DNA of 27,320 nt from a virus (lineage: Duplodnaviria > Caudoviricetes), in the IMG/VR virus record IMGVR_UViG_3300033412_000056, positions 1-27,320 of that record; one strand, written 5' to 3'. A program made the translations under genes and the position numbers. This document shows, piece by piece, positions 1,704-12,938 of the stretch. Position 1 is the first letter of the stretch; every line of letters begins with the position of its first letter. The notes beneath the pieces are model-generated. The model was not told the DNA's origin, did no database searches, and saw only the letters and a program-made list of their open reading frames with translations.

Positions 1704-2117
1704 ATGACATTGAAAGTCATAAAACGTGATACCACGCCTAAATGCACACCTGTTCGCTGTCAAGCAATACTAGATAGCATTTCCCGACGAATTCCTTACA
1801 AGATAGCTGCCCACTCCGCAGGAATTGGCGCAACTACGTTGTATGACTGGCTTAGAAAGGGTAAAACTGATTTAGCAGAAAATGTCGAGAGTGAATATGC
1901 TTCATTTGCGCAATCTGTTTCTAGTGTTGAGCAAGAGCGCATTGCAGAACATCTCGATAATATCCGAATGCGTTTAAAGAATTGGCAAGCTGATGCGTGG
2001 ATTTTAGAAAGACGCTGGCCCGATTTCTTTAGCCAGTCAGCACATTTAACAGATTTGGCTAAAAAGATTGATTTTCTTGAAAAACTTCTTATGTCAAAAG
2101 GCAAGGATGCTGTATGA
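1704..2117 (+). CDS. terS: Probable terminase small subunit (N-terminal HTH)
   Basis: HTH-like AAHSAGIGATTLYDW and the WQADAWILERRWP motif seen in phage small-terminase-like proteins. First late gene, upstream of TerL. Confidence 0.7.
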   Translation: MTLKVIKRDTTPKCTPVRCQAILDSISRRIPYKIAAHSAGIGATTLYDWLRKGKTDLAENVESEYASFAQSVSSVEQERIAEHLDNIRMRLKNWQADAWILERRWPDFFSQSAHLTDLAKKIDFLEKLLMSKGKDAV

Positions 2118-2406: not shown

Positions 2407-2595
2407 ATGGATTGCGTTAATTGCAAATATCCTGAGACACAAGTTGTTGAATCGCGTGTTCGAGACAGCGGGGTTGTTTACCGGAGACGTGAATGCAGTA
2501 AATGTGGCATTCGGTTTTCCACAGTAGAAAATCTAAAAGTTCGGAAGAGTCATGAAACGATTAAACCTCAAGTCCCGAAGGTTTATATTGAATGA
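2407..2595 (+). CDS. NrdR-like N-terminal zinc-ribbon protein lacking the ATP-cone
   Basis: CxxC...(V)VESR...RRRECxxCGxRFSTVE matches the NrdR Zn-ribbon signature. The protein ends at 62 aa. Confidence 0.85.
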   Translation: MDCVNCKYPETQVVESRVRDSGVVYRRRECSKCGIRFSTVENLKVRKSHETIKPQVPKVYIE

Positions 2596-4145
2596 TTACC
2601 GCATCATCTCTTGATAAGCGTATTGCGGATTTATTAGATCGTGCAAAAGCCGAAGAAGAGTCGCATATTAAATATACAGAGTATGGAGTGGAAATATATG
2701 ATCAGGAAGATACTAGGGTTTATGTTCCAAGCAATACTGGTAGCATTTTTCATAGTGATGATACTTTTGTTCGCTGCGTTATGGGTCCCTACGGATCAGG
2801 GAAATCAACCCTTTGCATCAATGAAATCGTCAAACGAACTTGTACTATGCCGAGATGGAGTAATAATAGACGAAGATCAAGATGGGCAATCGTAAGAAAT
2901 ACGTCTGGTGAACTTCAAACGACAACTCTTCAAACATGGCTTGCTTGGTTCGGATCGCTTGGAGACATTTATAAGCGCCAAAAGCCGATATTAACTTATG
3001 AGCATACATTTAATGATGGTGAAGGAGTTATTGAGCTAGAGCTATTATTTTTAGCTTTAGACAGGCCAGACGACATACGTAAAATTAAATCTCTTGAGTT
3101 AACGGGATGCTATATCAATGAACTATCAGAAGTACCCAAAGCTGCATTAGATCACATGAAAGGGCGCGTTGGTCGTTATCCAGGTCCTAATTTTTGTAAT
3201 GATTCCTATTGGTATGGAGTCATTTCAGATACAAACCCACCGGACGATGACCATTGGATTTATCATACATTCGAAGAAAAAATATTACCTGAATATAAAA
3301 TGTTTAAGCAGCCAACAGGACTTATTAAAGATGAGGAAGGTAAATGGATTACAAATCCTAATGCTGATAACATTAAAAATCTGCCCGTTGGATATTATGA
3401 GAAGATGGCAAGTGGCCAGACTGAGGAGTTCATTAAAGTATTTTGCCGTGGAATATATGGCTCGGTAGGCACAGGCAAGCGCGTTTATCCTGAATACAAT
3501 GATGACATGCATTCGATTGATGAAATCCAGCCTATCGCTGGTGAACTCATTCATCTTGGATGGGATGGAGGACTAACTCCCGCTTGTGTGGTTATTCAGA
3601 TTACACCAAGAGGTCAGTTATTGATACTCAAAGAATATTGTGCAGAAGATATGGGGATTAGAACATTTGCCGAATCAGTGGTATTGCCTGGACTTGCTAG
3701 AGATTTTCCAACAAATAAAATAGGTAAATCAGTGGCTGATCCAGCCTGTATCAAAAGAGATGAAATTATGGAAGAATTAAGCTTTATTGGGGAACTTAAT
3801 TCATTGGGTATAGAAACTATACCCGCTCGCACTAATAACCCAGACACTCGTATATCGGCTGTAAGATACTTTTTAAATGGTATGGTAGATGGTAAGCCTC
3901 GAATGCAAGTTTCTCGTAAAGGTGCGCCTATTATTAGAAAAGGATTTAACAAAGATTATGTTTACAAGAGATTAGCTGTTCCAGGTGAGGAGCGTTATAG
4001 AAATGTGCCAGACAAGAATAGAGCTTCTCATCCACATGATGGAACCCAATATATTTGTCTAGAGTTTGCTGCTGAGAGCATAGTGGGGAGTAAGATACAG
4101 CCAAAAGCAATAGATATTTTTAATCCTATTATGAGGACATTTTAA
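2592..4145 (+). CDS. terL: Terminase large subunit
   Basis: Walker A GPYGSGKS, Walker B-like YINE, DTNPP coupling motif, RNase H-like LGWDGG and C-terminal HPHDGTQY. Confidence 0.95.
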   Translation: MITASSLDKRIADLLDRAKAEEESHIKYTEYGVEIYDQEDTRVYVPSNTGSIFHSDDTFVRCVMGPYGSGKSTLCINEIVKRTCTMPRWSNNRRRSRWAIVRNTSGELQTTTLQTWLAWFGSLGDIYKRQKPILTYEHTFNDGEGVIELELLFLALDRPDDIRKIKSLELTGCYINELSEVPKAALDHMKGRVGRYPGPNFCNDSYWYGVISDTNPPDDDHWIYHTFEEKILPEYKMFKQPTGLIKDEEGKWITNPNADNIKNLPVGYYEKMASGQTEEFIKVFCRGIYGSVGTGKRVYPEYNDDMHSIDEIQPIAGELIHLGWDGGLTPACVVIQITPRGQLLILKEYCAEDMGIRTFAESVVLPGLARDFPTNKIGKSVADPACIKRDEIMEELSFIGELNSLGIETIPARTNNPDTRISAVRYFLNGMVDGKPRMQVSRKGAPIIRKGFNKDYVYKRLAVPGEERYRNVPDKNRASHPHDGTQYICLEFAAESIVGSKIQPKAIDIFNPIMRTF

Positions 4146-4440: not shown

Positions 4441-4599
4441 ATGCCATTAAAGAAATCAGCAAGCAAGAAAGCGTTTAAAGAGAATGTGAAGAAAGAAATT
4501 GAATCAGGAAAAAAACCGAAGCAAGCGGTTGCCATTGCTTATTCGGTTAAGCGAAAAGCTAAATCAAATAGAAAAAATGATATGAATAAAGATAAATAA
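4441..4599 (+). CDS. Small basic phage protein (MPLKK...KQAVAIAYS family)
   Basis: Motif common near terminase/portal genes of podoviruses. A GGAG RBS just upstream supports ATG 4441 over the track start at 4405. Confidence 0.8.
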   Translation: MPLKKSASKKAFKENVKKEIESGKKPKQAVAIAYSVKRKAKSNRKNDMNKDK

Positions 4600-4605
4600 G
4601 TTTAT

Positions 4606-4676
4606 GGCTGACGATACTTACTAGAGACCGACGATGACGTCATCGGGCTACACTTAGTTGGGAAAATAAGCCGCCA
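4606..4676 (+). ncRNA. Array unit 1: 71-nt CCA-ended structured RNA
   Basis: 5' GGCT pairs with AGCC, followed by G-CCA. Internal palindrome CGATGACGTCATCG (4632-4645). No T-arm. Confidence 0.5.
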
Positions 4677-4682
4677 GTTTAT

Positions 4683-4837
4683 GTTGCTTGAAGCTCAAAA
4701 AGACAGACTGGTGTCTGATCGAAGAGCCTCTGATTTTGCCATAGGCGAGGTCGTGCCCTTTAAATGATAGGGTTGAATGGATTAGTAACAGCGGCTAACC
4801 AGAGAGGTTGCAGGTGGAATCCCTGCCAGCAACGCCA
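4683..4837 (+). ncRNA. Array unit 2: 155-nt tRNA-like RNA with expanded D-loop and anticodon-loop insertion
   Basis: Acceptor GTTGCT/AGCAAC + G-CCA. D stem GCTC/GAGC. Anticodon-like stem CTCTG/CAGAG. Variable AGGTT. T arm GCAGG-TGGAATC-CCTGC. Confidence 0.75.
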
Positions 4838-4843
4838 GTTTAT

Positions 4844-4933
4844 GGATATCTAAGCGAGAATGCCGTGCCTTAGATCGACCCTAGATTTGGGTGATAACGC
4901 AGAGATTTGCGGAGGATTACCGGATATCCGCCA
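4844..4933 (+). ncRNA. Array unit 3: 90-nt CCA-ended structured RNA
   Basis: Perfect 7-bp acceptor-like stem GGATATC/GATATCC + G-CCA. Internal hairpins TAAG/CTTA, ACCC/GGGT and CGCAG/TTGCG. No canonical T-loop. Confidence 0.6.
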
Positions 4934-4939
4934 GTTTAT

Positions 4940-5113
4940 GACAATTGCGGCGCTGACAGTGAAGCGTGTTCCCAACCAATGAGGGGAACGTAACACGGCA
5001 GGTCATTGGGGTGAATGAAATGGGACCACCATGCATTGAGCTGAAGGAAATCCCATAAAAGGCTCATTCGTAGCGAGAGTTACAAGCCGGTGCAATTCCG
5101 GCCAATTGTCTCA
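4940..5113 (+). ncRNA. Array unit 4: ~172-nt tRNA-like RNA with 8-bp acceptor and giant variable arm
   Basis: Acceptor GACAATTG/CAATTGTC. D-like CGCT/AGCG. GTTCCC-10 nt-GGGAAC arm. GTAAC/GTTAC encloses about 84 nt. T arm GCCGG-TGCAATT-CCGGC. Ends TCA, with no full encoded CCA. Confidence 0.7.
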
Positions 5114-5129: not shown

Positions 5130-5231
5130 ATGGAATCAATAACTAATTGGCCACAAGCGTTTACTTTATCTGTTCTCGCACTATGTTGCGCCGCTGTTTT
5201 AATAGCGTTTATCATTGAAATGAATAAGTAA
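5130..5231 (+). CDS. Single-pass membrane peptide, 33 aa
   Basis: MESITNWPQAFTLSVLALCCAAVLIAFIIEMNK. RBS GGAG within hairpin TTTTAC-GGA-GTAAAA (5114-5128). Confidence 0.6.
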   Translation: MESITNWPQAFTLSVLALCCAAVLIAFIIEMNK

Positions 5232-8205: not shown

Positions 8206-8454
8206 ATGTTATTTAATGAAGCATTAGAGGCACTAAAAGAAGGGAAACATATTAGACGTGCGCTTTGGTCAAAAGAAGAAGGTTATTTAGTTCTTTTACC
8301 TGGTATTAGAACTGTTTGGAGAATTCAAAGTATTCCTAACGTTACAGCCGGAAATCATTTATTTTTATCCGATGAATTTCAAGCCTCAGATTGGGAGATA
8401 CTAGATGTTGAAAAATATTTAGCAGAACCAAAACCCCAAGAAAGCGATTTATAA
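8206..8454 (+). CDS. DUF2829/Tad2-like protein (putative Thoeris anti-defence sponge)
   Basis: FxEALEALKEGKHIRRxxW ... ASDWEI matches the recalled N- and C-terminal motifs of the family. Confidence 0.7.
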   Translation: MLFNEALEALKEGKHIRRALWSKEEGYLVLLPGIRTVWRIQSIPNVTAGNHLFLSDEFQASDWEILDVEKYLAEPKPQESDL

Positions 8455-8536: not shown

Positions 8537-10723
8537 ATGGAGATGCCGATTGATCCAATCGACCAAACTACTTTGGGCGAAATGGAAGAACAGCGCGTTG
8601 CTGCTTTGAGTGATGCGCAAATTGATGAAGCAGATGTTTTAGCTAGCGCCCAAGATGATTTAACCCTATGGGATGGTTACTTTAGCGAAAACATAACTCG
8701 CGGCAAAGACGACATGAATTTCGTCTTACGTGACCAGTGGACAGCTATTGAACGAAGTGAGTTTACTCGCTTATTTAAACCGGCTATGACGTTCAATAAG
8801 TTGTATGATACTGTTAAAAAGATAGTTGGCGAACAACGAAAAAACAAGCCAGACTTATTAGTAAGATCGCTAACAGGAAAAGCAACACAAGAGCAAATAA
8901 ACCTCCGTGCAGATTTAGTGCGCACGATTTCATATCAATCACAAAACGATTTAGTCTATCAAATAGCATTTAAACAAGCCTTACTGATGGGGTATGGAGG
9001 ATATGATATAGTATTAGACTATGAGTCGCCCACTAGTTTTAATCCTGTCATTCGATATGAATTGATACCTGACATTACCAGAACGTCTTATGATCCCACC
9101 GCAATAAAACCACATAAGGGAGATGGGAATTTTTGTGCTAGACAGTTTGTTTATACAAAACAAGAGTTTTTTGCTGAATATCCTCATGTTTCAAATCCTG
9201 TTTCTTATTCTGATCCTAGATCTCTTTTAGATTTTCAGTGGGAAACCAGAGATACCATTGTTGTTTGTAAATATACTCGAAAAGAATGGTTTAACGTAAA
9301 AATGTTAAAACTATCTAATGGTATGGTTGTAACGGAAGAAGAATGGGAGGATATGCAAAAACAGTTTGAAATGGTTAAAAATCTAGCAAAAGAAGATGTT
9401 ATTGTAAGAAATATTATTTTAAATGAAATTCCTAAAATTGTTGCTGATCGCAGAACAAAAGATTACAAGATTCGTCAATATAAGCTCACACAAAATCAAG
9501 TATTAGAGTTTACGGATTGGCCTTCTAAGTATTTAAACATGATATTTGTCGATGGCGATTCTTATTTTGTAAATGGACAGCAATATACAAGATCATTTGT
9601 TCATGAAGCCCGCGATGCTCAGCGATTTATTAATTATGTTGGGTCTGAAATTGCAGCCGAAATTAAGAATCGTCGACGTGAACAATGGTTGGGAACCCCT
9701 GATAATATTATTGGTTATGAGCAATTATGGCGTAATCCTGAATTACAAAATGGTATTTTGATTGCAAAACCTGATCCAAAAACAGGTCAAATGCCTATAA
9801 AAATGCCTCCTTGGGAACTTTCTAATTCGCTTTTACAACATTTTCAACGAGGCAATCAGGATATACGTGAAATTCTTGGGTTTTCTGAGCAAGAAGAGCT
9901 TCAAGGGCGGGATATGTCTGGAAAAGCTCGCAGAGAACGAAAAATGGAAGGTTCAATGTCAGCTTATGTTTATTTTGATAACTTGAATCAAGCTATTGAG
10001 CAAGGCGGAAGAGTAGTGCTTGATTTGTTACCTATTATTGCAGGTGAAGATGAACGTCACATGGTTGTATCTAAAGCAGATGGTCGAACTGAATCAGTTA
10101 TTCTTAATCAACGTACAAAGGACGGTATCATTAATGCCTTAGATCAAGGCGATTATGATATTGAAATTGATACGGGTCCTTCATTTGCTGTTCAAAAAGA
10201 TACTGCGCTAGAGTTCTTCCAACAAACGATTGCGGCTAATCCGCAAACTTTCCCATTAATAGCTGATTTATGGGCTAAAAACTTAGATGTTCAGTTTATG
10301 CCGCAAATTTCTGAACGGTTTAAGTCAATGGTTCCACCTGAGATTCTGGCTAAAGAAGAAGGAAAGCCGGCTCCTCCTTCACAGCCAAATCCACAAGCTA
10401 TGATGGCTATGATGGAGATGAAGTCTCAACAAGAGAAAATGCAAAATGATCGCGTTCAACTTGAATTAAAGAAAGAGGAATTGCGACTCAAGCAAGAGCA
10501 GCACGAGTTAGATAAAGCTGAAGCTATCATCAAAGCACGTCAAATGGATATGGAAAATCAATTGGATGTTTATAACCACCAAGCCAATATTGAAGAAGCG
10601 AAAATTCGTCACGGATTAGATCATAAAAAAGCAGATTATGATTTTACTTCTAAAATAGCAAACATGCTTACAGATATCCATAAACATGAAAATCCACAGA
10701 AAAAGGAAAATAAAAATATTTAA
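8537..10723 (+). CDS. Portal protein (P22 gp1-like)
   Basis: 728 aa. DQW..R...KPAMTFNKL, DAQRFINY, SGKA, FDNL and YDIEIDTGPSF motifs. C-terminal coiled-coil barrel. Confidence 0.92.
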   Translation: MEMPIDPIDQTTLGEMEEQRVAALSDAQIDEADVLASAQDDLTLWDGYFSENITRGKDDMNFVLRDQWTAIERSEFTRLFKPAMTFNKLYDTVKKIVGEQRKNKPDLLVRSLTGKATQEQINLRADLVRTISYQSQNDLVYQIAFKQALLMGYGGYDIVLDYESPTSFNPVIRYELIPDITRTSYDPTAIKPHKGDGNFCARQFVYTKQEFFAEYPHVSNPVSYSDPRSLLDFQWETRDTIVVCKYTRKEWFNVKMLKLSNGMVVTEEEWEDMQKQFEMVKNLAKEDVIVRNIILNEIPKIVADRRTKDYKIRQYKLTQNQVLEFTDWPSKYLNMIFVDGDSYFVNGQQYTRSFVHEARDAQRFINYVGSEIAAEIKNRRREQWLGTPDNIIGYEQLWRNPELQNGILIAKPDPKTGQMPIKMPPWELSNSLLQHFQRGNQDIREILGFSEQEELQGRDMSGKARRERKMEGSMSAYVYFDNLNQAIEQGGRVVLDLLPIIAGEDERHMVVSKADGRTESVILNQRTKDGIINALDQGDYDIEIDTGPSFAVQKDTALEFFQQTIAANPQTFPLIADLWAKNLDVQFMPQISERFKSMVPPEILAKEEGKPAPPSQPNPQAMMAMMEMKSQQEKMQNDRVQLELKKEELRLKQEQHELDKAEAIIKARQMDMENQLDVYNHQANIEEAKIRHGLDHKKADYDFTSKIANMLTDIHKHENPQKKENKNI

Positions 10724-11726: not shown

Positions 11727-12938
11727 ATGTCAAATCAATTTATTACTACGGATTTAGTGAGCAACACCGCGTTAGCAATGTTTGCTAACAATTCACCTTT
11801 TGTAATGACTGCATCACGAATTTACCAAGATGACTTTGTGTCTTCTGGTTATAAAATTGGTGATAACTTACAAGTACGAAGACAGAACCATTTTATCGTT
11901 GGTGATGGTTCAACAGCAACCCCGCAAGATATTATCGAAACAGTTGAAAATATCACTGTATCGCATCAATACCATGCTTTGATTGCATACACAATTCAAG
12001 ACTTATCATTACGTATTGAAGATTTCTCAAGAATCTTTATTGCGCCTGCCATTCAAGAAATTATTACCCAGATGGAAAAAGATATTGCCTCACAAGCTGA
12101 GCAACAACTTTATTTTTACACTGGAACGCCTGGCACACCGATCAATTCTTTTACAACTGTTGACCTAGCTGGTGCAAAATTGCTCGAACAGGGGGTTAAT
12201 ATTGCACAAAATGCTTATATGGCAATTACAGTAAGGGATGGTTCTTCGTTAAAAGGTGCGTTACTTAATAATTTCACACCTGTATTTAACGAAAATATTG
12301 TTAAAAATTCTGCTATTGGACATATGTCATATTTTGACATTTTCCAATCTCAAAATATCAAACGTCATACTGCTGGTGCTGGCCCAAGACTCTATTCATC
12401 CGATACATTATTGGTGAATGGTGCAGTTTCGTCAGGCAGTACAATTGCAATGGACGGAGCAACAATCAGCATTACTGATTATTTTGTTGTTGGCGACGTT
12501 TTCTCGATTGCAGGAGTTGAATCAGTAAATCCGGTTGGACGCGCTTCTACAGGCCAAGATATGCAGTTTGTTGTAACTGCTAATGCAAGTTCAGATAGCA
12601 GTGGGAATGTGACTGTTTCAGTCCAACCAACCATTATCTCTGATACTTCTAATCCAAATAGAAATGTCAGTAATCCTATTCCGAATAATGCTGTTGTCAC
12701 TATGATTACAAGTCATAATGTTAATGTCGCTTATCCAGAACGTGGATTAGATATCGTATGTCCTCCTCTTTATAAATTACAGGTCCCTTATGCCTCTGTT
12801 GCAGTTGATCCTGAAAGTGGATTATCACTTGCTGTGACACAGACGGGCGATATTTTGGGATATCAAAACTATATGCGTATTGACTTATTGTGTGGTTTCT
12901 CTTGGCACCCACAATATTCAGTACGTGTATTGTCATAA
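11727..12938 (+). CDS. Major capsid protein (P22 coat protein family)
   Basis: MSNQFIT...ALAMFAN, KIGDNLQVR, GDVFSIAGVESVNP insertion domain and C-terminal RIDLLCG motifs. Confidence 0.92.
   Translation: MSNQFITTDLVSNTALAMFANNSPFVMTASRIYQDDFVSSGYKIGDNLQVRRQNHFIVGDGSTATPQDIIETVENITVSHQYHALIAYTIQDLSLRIEDFSRIFIAPAIQEIITQMEKDIASQAEQQLYFYTGTPGTPINSFTTVDLAGAKLLEQGVNIAQNAYMAITVRDGSSLKGALLNNFTPVFNENIVKNSAIGHMSYFDIFQSQNIKRHTAGAGPRLYSSDTLLVNGAVSSGSTIAMDGATISITDYFVVGDVFSIAGVESVNPVGRASTGQDMQFVVTANASSDSSGNVTVSVQPTIISDTSNPNRNVSNPIPNNAVVTMITSHNVNVAYPERGLDIVCPPLYKLQVPYASVAVDPESGLSLAVTQTGDILGYQNYMRIDLLCGFSWHPQYSVRVLS

Follow-up and report, generated by a model that had tools for sequence, protein, structure and literature searches.

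The closest precedent for the locus described here comes from phage T4, whose rnaC and rnaD are non-tRNA RNAs of 119-139 nt carried in a polycistronic phage precursor; PMC9697503 describes them as late RNAs whose function is not known. T4 rnaC consists of a terminal stem, a T arm and a large interior, and a short A/T-rich spacer separates it from the preceding ACCA end of rnaD. Phage P4 encodes CI, a small RNA matured by RNase P. The same maturation is described for the C4 RNA of phage P1 (PMC11143913). CI and C4 are both single RNAs that have complementary targets and belong to an immunity operon. Irregular tRNAs are also known: the allo-tRNAs reported by Mukai et al. from soil data are polycistronic and have 8-bp acceptor stems, and some RNAs of this type are thought to act outside translation (PMC5389517). 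Their acceptor branches are of 12 bp (8/4 or 9/3) and they carry anticodons. Finally, the bacterial Y RNAs (YrlA/YrlB) are encoded beside Ro60 and carry a Ro60-binding helix.

We analysed a DNA stretch of 27,320 nt (the window, to which all coordinates refer unless a locus is named). It comes from a P22-like podophage, whose linear record is 78% complete. Between terL and the portal gene, this phage carries on the + strand four different structured units separated by a short repeated linker (Table 1). We propose, with a probability of about 0.5, that these are exchangeable structured-RNA cassettes that would be released by RNase P and act as decoys for host proteins.

Table 1. Features of the array and of its genomic neighbourhood (coordinates of the 27,320-nt window)
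Feature	Position	Strand	Remarks
terS	1704-2117		
terL, terminase large subunit	2592..4145	+	phrog_2
Small basic 52-aa ORF	4441..4599	+	phrog_2423 (function not assigned); stop codon abuts leader 1
Leader 1, GTTTAT	4600..4605	+	A(-2)U(-1) ahead of G(+1)
Unit 1	4606..4676	+	71 nt, GCCA end
Unit 1 internal loop	4610-4616 with 4662-4668	+	7x7, 5S rRNA loop E type
Linker 2, GTTTAT	4677..4682	+	CCA-G-UUU matches RNase E core RN/WUU
Unit 2	4683..4837	+	155 nt, GCCA end
Unit 2 acceptor	4683-4690 with 4827-4833	+	
Unit 2 D stem	4693-4696 with 4724-4727	+	lengthened by hairpin
Unit 2 anticodon-like stem	4728-4732 with 4800-4804	+	closes multi-hairpin insert
Unit 2 T arm	4810-4826	+	preceded by 5-nt variable region
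Linker 3, GTTTAT	4838..4843	+	
Unit 3	4844..4933	+	90 nt, GCCA end
Unit 3 closing stem	4844-4851 with 4922-4929	+	8 bp
Linker 4, GTTTAT	4934..4939	+	
Unit 4	4940..5111	+	171-174 nt, no encoded CCA
Unit 4 acceptor	4940-4947 with 5103-5110	+	8 bp
Unit 4 D arm	4950-4967	+	5 bp
Unit 4 T arm	5086-5102	+	TGCAATT loop
33-aa ORF	5130..5231	+	ribosome-binding site starts about 10 nt past unit 4
Portal, P22-like	8537..10723	+	PF16510
Coat protein	11727-12938		

An earlier note, made from the sequence of the window, had described a GTTTAT-punctuated array of four CCA-ended, tRNA-like RNAs, and the layout that it gave is correct. GTTTAT occurs at 4600, 4677, 4838 and 4934, and CGCCAGTTTATG, with copies at 4672, 4833 and 4929, is the only 12-mer with three copies inside 300 nt anywhere in the window; such triplets are present in none of 100 dinucleotide shuffles. 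The unit ends are complementary, as had been claimed, with closing stems that open at the G right after the leader and comprise 4 bp, 6 bp (+1), 8 bp and 8 bp in units 1-4, respectively. The G+CCA ends seen in the note hold for units 1-3, and unit 4 ends in TCA. We also recovered the GC-richer stretch without an ORF: G+C is 0.49 in the array versus 0.36 in the window, and the array contains only frames of 28-48 aa and no ORF of 60 aa or more.

The ends of the units resemble substrates of tRNA-processing enzymes. The preferred substrates of RNase P have U(-1), A(-2), G(+1) and a 3' RCCA, the optimal leader placing A(-2)U(-1) ahead of G(+1), and the enzyme also accepts continuous helices such as that of pre-SRP RNA (PMC10731613). 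All four RNase P features (U(-1)/G(+1), A(-2), a terminal helix and a 3' RCCA) are found in units 1-3, and all but the RCCA in unit 4. The cleavage core of RNase E is RN/WUU (PMC5222698), and in E. coli precursors this enzyme cuts 1-3 nt past the CCA (PMC2190699). We consider it likely that the units are released as separate RNAs through RNase P and 3' trimming.

None of the units is a canonical tRNA, in line with the earlier reading. ARAGORN found 0 genes (tRNA or tmRNA) on the array and Rfam matched nothing inside it at E<=10, an absence of clean hits that the note had anticipated. The units do not show the canonical combination of a 7/5 cloverleaf, 7-nt anticodon loop, D-loop GG, T-loop TTC and a match to ARAGORN or RF00005, nor do they show the tRNA-like domain with tag ORF, recognized by ARAGORN or Rfam, that marks a tmRNA. 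The argument for the array rests on its relatives, because the folding z-scores of units 1-4 (-1.28, -2.26, -1.84 and -1.96, respectively) are modest when taken alone.

Relatives were collected by several searches. A terL search gave 114 viral loci, of which 80 were kept (55-67% identity), and a metagenome scan gave 16 further loci, one of them being the window. Core patterns were scanned for each shell, yielding 84 loci for unit 1, 120 taken of about 170 for unit 2, and 120 taken of about 150 for unit 4. The sequencing runs listed as containing this stretch were four DNA runs, with no RNA run among them; the DNA contigs of runs X3 and X4 were used for sequence variants only, and locus L427, identical to the window, was left out of the counts. 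Shell patterns were present in 8 of 82 terL loci, and a unit-1 model added L076 and a weak L039. On the window and 38 related loci, Rfam reported only neighbouring true tRNAs. Cultured phages and plasmids did not match the array, with only chance-level hits to the 5' end of unit 4. By these comparisons, uncultured phages have conserved families for three of the four units.

The earlier note had given all the units a tRNA shell, which holds for units 2 and 4 but not for unit 1, a loop E hairpin, or for unit 3, which lacks a T loop. Unit 1 is a hairpin that carries the loop E motif of 5S rRNA, the bL25 site, and is not tRNA-like. It is made up of a 4-bp closing stem, the 7x7 loop, C-G and U.G pairs placed beside the loop as in 5S helix IV, and a variable 41-nt interior. 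Among 76 matches to the unit-1 pattern, the closing stem is present in 42; U(-1) is found in 40 of these 42 and A(-2)U(-1) in 33 (counted by eye), numbers that are independent of the search since the leader was absent from both pattern and filter. A relaxed search led to 61 core units, whose fixed part consists of the 4-bp stem, the loop GACGAUA with GAAAAUA, and then the C-G (48/61) and U.G (38/61) pairs, which are the same in several 5S genes; the near-invariance of the loop is partly a product of the scan patterns themselves. Stem-closed RNAs of this type are 55-110 nt long, and their interiors (25-83 nt) form 54 clusters among the 61 units. The interior in the window contains a perfect 14-nt palindrome (4629-4642) that could permit RNA dimers and is not conserved in the family alignment.

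Unit 1 shares with the bacterial 5S loop E its symmetric 7x7 shape, the conserved G-A...U-A ends of both strands, and the flanking CC/GG, C-G and U.G pairs. It differs from 5S rRNA in being a free, stem-closed phage RNA with an RCCA end and a variable interior, and it has no other 5S domain, no three-domain fold and no match to RF00001; unlike rplY leaders, it is not located ahead of rplY. Seven real 5S genes have the same layout, with 2-5 differences over the 14 positions of the loop; the central loop pairs of unit 1 differ from those of all seven, and the Cupriavidus gene is one double change away from the unit-1 loop. Over 22 positions, the majority sequence of the family agrees with these genes at 16-18 and the window's own unit 1 at 14-16. 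When a profile made from the seven genes was run over both strands of 2.14 Mb of phage DNA, from loci fetched without the unit-1 pattern, 7 of the 8 top hits were unit-1 shells (6 flagged by script plus L076, confirmed separately), and at the next score level down 1 of 5 was. Real 5S genes did not stand out when scored with a unit-1 covariance model (at most 7.4 bits, E 7.4), and a scan for 5S genes bearing exactly the loop of unit 1 gave 16 matches, all of them chance matches. We take the loop variant of unit 1 to be that of plastid and cyanobacterial 5S.

L25 binds the symmetric loop E of 5S rRNA (PMC4408793) and is dispensable for viability, yet required for normal growth (PMC10931766). Judging from the likeness of the loops, unit 1 probably binds bL25/Ctc. 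Some unit-1 variants flip or alter the central loop pairs, and these may not be suited to bL25. At their 3' ends, some 5S genes look like the RCCA-G-UU terminus of unit 1, so that unit 1 may have descended from the 3' half of 5S rRNA. A 5S rRNA-like stretch is also seen in two records of Bacteroides phage LoVEphage (OY731433.1 and MW660583.1), in one of which it is annotated as 5S rRNA; this stretch may be host DNA.

Unit 2 is an expanded tRNA cloverleaf shell, in which a hairpin lengthens the D arm and a branched insert stands for the anticodon loop. At least 7 distinct units passed among 120 pattern matches, and BLAST added more. In an alignment of 10 sequences, 34 columns are invariant, 92% of cells are paired, and 20 of 35 pairs change on both sides, a number reached by 0 of 500 shuffles. 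Covarying stems in homologues were what the earlier note had asked for, and the acceptors of unit 4 (below) supply them as well. The insert of the window is common to L310, L329 and one run-X3 contig, the latter showing two additional double changes. A compensatory 19-56 elbow pair was considered for unit 2 and dropped, as the D-arm bases involved pair in the inserted hairpin. In L066, a degenerate tRNA-like gene with mismatched stems (9358-9431 of that locus) lies directly 3' of the unit-2 RNA.

Unit 3 has three arms and no T loop, and its family is poorly sampled, the relatives being a partial one in L128 and one run-X3 contig that matches 4847-4903 with 9 differences. One scan for this family returned the L128 contig alone and another returned 0.

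Unit 4 is a 13-bp (8+5) acceptor/T shell with a D arm and without an anticodon arm, having a 118-nt variable interior in place of the anticodon and variable arms; a loop-loop pairing of 4976-4982 with 5003-5009 may form. The pattern used in the scan covered the D arm and position 8 only, not the acceptor strands. Among the loci listed, 118 D-arm matches had room for the rest of the shell, and the T-loop motif was found in 91 distinct units and missing in 18. The acceptors of this family are 93.5% paired, versus 53% when 5' and 3' strands are permuted (maximum 59% in 1000), and at least 7 of the 8 acceptor pairs form in 83 of the 91 units, with 52 different 5' strands. Hardly any variation is seen in the D loop or in the TGCAATT T loop (72/83), whereas the interiors range from 29 to 254 nt and form 75 clusters in 83. 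Double changes occur at 13 of 18 pairs when 33 rows, chosen beforehand for pairing and short interiors, are aligned. G.U pairs outnumber C.A pairs 23 to 6, and the + strand is therefore favoured as the RNA.

G+C-rich and large (120-200 kb) phage contigs without a TTTAT leader (L286-L405) have the unit-4 shell too, so that the distribution of this shell is wider than the phage group of the window. In four loci with unrelated flanks (L314, L325, L359 and L362), unit-4 shells hold one interior family with long invariant stretches, whose complementary segments suggest a nested pseudoknot. A likeness of the unit-4 interior to twister was considered and rejected, the order of motifs being wrong by eye and Rfam giving no match. 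As for the shell itself, tRNAs with an 8/5 geometry are excluded from EF-Tu. The 8/5 acceptor/T geometry is that of bacterial tRNA-Sec (PMC5389517).

Having tRNA-like D and T arms, and with true tRNAs near 5 of 31 unit-1 loci versus 1 of 45 chance loci, the units could be taken for decayed tRNA genes or for aberrant decoding tRNAs of the allo-tRNA type. We find this barely credible. The stems covary rather than decay, and there is no sign of the simple decay that the earlier note had named as a refuting finding; the D and T loops are near-invariant and non-canonical, the 7-nt anticodon loop is missing in units 2 and 4, and neither ARAGORN nor the Rfam tRNA models match. The 8/5 geometry of the 13-bp unit-4 family is not the 8/4 or 9/3 of allo-tRNAs, and the units do not show the allo-tRNA/selC* set of a 12-bp branch, long V arm and anticodon loop. 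In the supplementary sequence table of PMC5389517, the D-loop and loop E motifs of the units are absent.

The junction between units is itself shared among phages. A strict test requiring a stem, RCCA, a short linker, G and a stem identified 41 distinct junctions in 29 locus groups (the window and 28 others) and 0 in 739 kb of terL flanks; the junction counts were taken from this test, as an automatic array walk over-extends into coding DNA. The note's proposal, several different structured RNAs joined in one polycistronic cassette through junctions of the RNase P type, is supported, as are its fixed shells with unlike interiors. The note had suggested looking for such arrays between terL and portal, and to this interval they are not confined: in five hand-picked records, units lie elsewhere in such genomes too. 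Arrays mix unit-1, unit-2 and unit-4 shells with other cassettes and sometimes with true tRNAs. Cassettes of the same family are 53-97% identical, and no flanking DNA could be aligned in 29 of 30 pairs. Two cassettes stand in opposite order in L126 and L144, and the 465 bases that the window has between two flanks are replaced by 259 between the same flanks in a close relative from run X3. These comparisons indicate that phages gain, lose and reorder cassettes at a common junction, which may serve as microhomology for the exchange.

Such gain, loss and reordering might also mark a DNA-level element without RNA function, namely single-strand hairpins or integron-like recombination sites. This is highly improbable in our view: G.U exceeds C.A on one strand, loop E and the T-loop are RNA tertiary motifs, the closing stems vary from cassette to cassette, and no recombinase is found among the 35 window proteins.

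At least four further candidate cassette families share the array junction, in loci such as the L081, L095, L124 and L126 groups. Cassettes without loop E or a T arm were observed in L081, L099 and L423; in L095, L156, L158 and L362; in L124, L316 and L421; and in L126 and L144. On the minus strand of L128 (about 670-800, counted in that orientation), an array cassette has a hammerhead-ribozyme-like core with three short stems, by pattern match, and a cassette upstream of the unit-1 RNA in L095 looks hammerhead-like by eye as well. Rfam gave no match for this L128/L095 cassette.

A reading close to ours is that the RNAs are released and that their shells alone are functional, with unit 1 titrating bL25, units 2 and 4 titrating tRNA enzymes or tRNA-cutting defence nucleases, and the interiors being neutral spacers. 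The contrast between fixed shells and variable interiors, which are mostly unique in both the unit-1 and the unit-4 family, speaks for it, as does a weak folding signal (interiors exceed shuffles in stability by little, median z -0.81). Still, members of an interior family keep 53-97% identity where their flanks are unrelated, and they show invariant motifs and double changes; a single array in L126 combines four unit-1 shells with four different interiors. We consider the shell-only version unlikely. Among 148 interiors, none was common to different shell types.

Variable interiors would also suit the target specificity of antisense regulators like P1 C4 or P4 CI, whose target-specific loops would then lie in the interior, and the RNase P maturation of C4 fits this option, which the earlier note had listed. 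It did not hold up in the window: the longest complementarity to the rest of this sequence is 8-11 nt, no better than in shuffles (p 0.44-1.0), in a search for unbroken matches within the window (78% of the genome). There is likewise no match to Rfam C4 and no target in the same phage of the kind that C4 and CI have, and we regard an antisense role as very unlikely.

The ends of the RNAs bear on another possibility. The CCA end described for the array applies to units 1-3 of the window and is not a family-wide property, being encoded in 30 of 61 unit-1-type RNAs and in only 6 of 83 unit-4-type RNAs. With 77 of 83 unit-4-type RNAs lacking it, and with 27 of the 83 having a start codon and its ribosome-binding site no more than 35 nt away (no control set), as in the window, the units might be cis-acting elements for mRNA processing and stability, the operon being cut into segments by RNase P and the downstream message keeping the last shell as a protective 5' cap. 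It would agree with this that arrays begin directly behind stop codons, first units lying at most 15 nt from an upstream stop in 17 of 40 cases versus 42 of 800 random positions. On the other hand, the internal units of 3-5-unit arrays adjoin no gene and end in RCCA, a single cut would be enough, and the loop E motif would be left without a role. We therefore hold a cis-acting function to be quite unlikely.

The stop codon of the 52-aa ORF abuts leader 1, and the array is therefore probably co-transcribed with that ORF. As no sigma-70-like promoter was found on the + strand between 4100 and 5400, we infer read-through from the packaging operon. The small basic ORF was seen near unit-1 RNAs in 2 of 31 loci versus 0 of 45, a comparison of few cases. 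Just ahead of the portal gene of the window lies a Tad2-like (PF11195) gene (8206-8454). Tad2-like genes are present in 52 of 80 terL loci and lie directly 5' of single RNA units in L052 and L066; near unit-1 RNAs these anti-defence genes are not clearly enriched (3/31 versus 3/45).

The best cultured matches of terL have 39-40% identity, and in GTDB it is found on two MAG contigs of unlike lineages that are probably mis-binned. For the coat protein, 765 relatives pass E<=1e-50, and the top 119 of these are 84-89% identical; the protein is far more conserved than terL (55-67%), and its homologues carry no informative host name. From its protein relatives, the window phage belongs to a large uncultured group of podophages of about 35 kb. 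The ORFs upstream of the arrays in L423, L127 and L421 resemble a cold-shock protein and small coiled-coil proteins of the sort present in amoeba-associated gammaproteobacteria, and they hint weakly at the host.

We thus return to the proposal of exchangeable decoy cassettes. The array would likely be transcribed together with the head-packaging operon, and host RNase P would likely cleave at every U|G junction, with the GUUUAU trailers predicted to be trimmed by RNase E and exonucleases; both RNase E and bL25 are assumed for this host. The products would be four stable, separate RNAs serving as decoys, each with a fixed shell copied from host translation RNAs. Unit 1 would offer loop E/helix IV of 5S rRNA, a predicted ligand of bL25/Ctc. 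Units 2 and 4 would offer the acceptor-D-T frame of tRNA with its 13-bp acceptor domain; since they lack the anticodon loop, they would be recognized by RNase P and other tRNA-binding proteins yet would not decode. In each RNA, the shell would supply maturation and stability and titrate its own protein, and the structured insert would provide a second, cassette-specific binding surface. That shells and inserts act in this way as decoys against host translation or defence proteins seems to us a little short of an even bet.

By analogy, the array groups with the stable non-tRNA RNAs of phages that are matured like tRNA, for which T4 is the precedent; the terminal stem, T arm and large interior of T4 rnaC are an architecture common with units 2 and 4. 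Unlike the units, T4 rnaC and rnaD have a canonical T loop, occupy a fixed site in a tRNA cluster and contain no rRNA motif. They show no sequence similarity to 265 units save for one 13-nt T-arm match, and in the literature searched we found no report of their exchange as cassettes. Cassette exchange and the free 5S mimic fall outside the T4 precedent. Y RNAs offer no closer parallel, as no Ro60/TROVE match occurs among the 35 window proteins (in a 78%-complete genome) and Rfam Y RNA models do not match. A literature search in which subscription journals were thinly covered gave no description of such phage cassette arrays, and supplements 3-6 of Fremin et al. 2023 (PMC10690425) gave no match; its other alignment files may hold these families. 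The array system is real and widespread, and it is apparently undescribed.

These results add at least three strongly supported RNA families that are new to Rfam and that move as cassettes in dozens to more than 100 uncultured phage contigs. Within the searches made here, unit 1 would be the first virus-encoded free mimic of 5S loop E, and bL25 binding offers a simple way to test whether a ribosomal protein is titrated by phage RNA. From the tRNA-shell families come many natural variants for the decades-old question of the role of T4 rnaC and rnaD, and the junction and shells are ready-made parts for freeing several structured RNAs from one transcript. More tentatively, and at clearly less than even odds, the arrays may represent a new class of phage weapon: exchangeable RNA-decoy arrays freed by host tRNA maturation from the RCCA-GUUUAU junction, whose shells, copied from tRNA and 5S rRNA and including a free bL25 sponge, would carry a large and shuffled set of natural aptamers against host translation and defence proteins. 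If so, anti-defence gene islands would have an RNA counterpart in them, and expression engineered with tRNA scaffolds and tRNA spacers a natural version.
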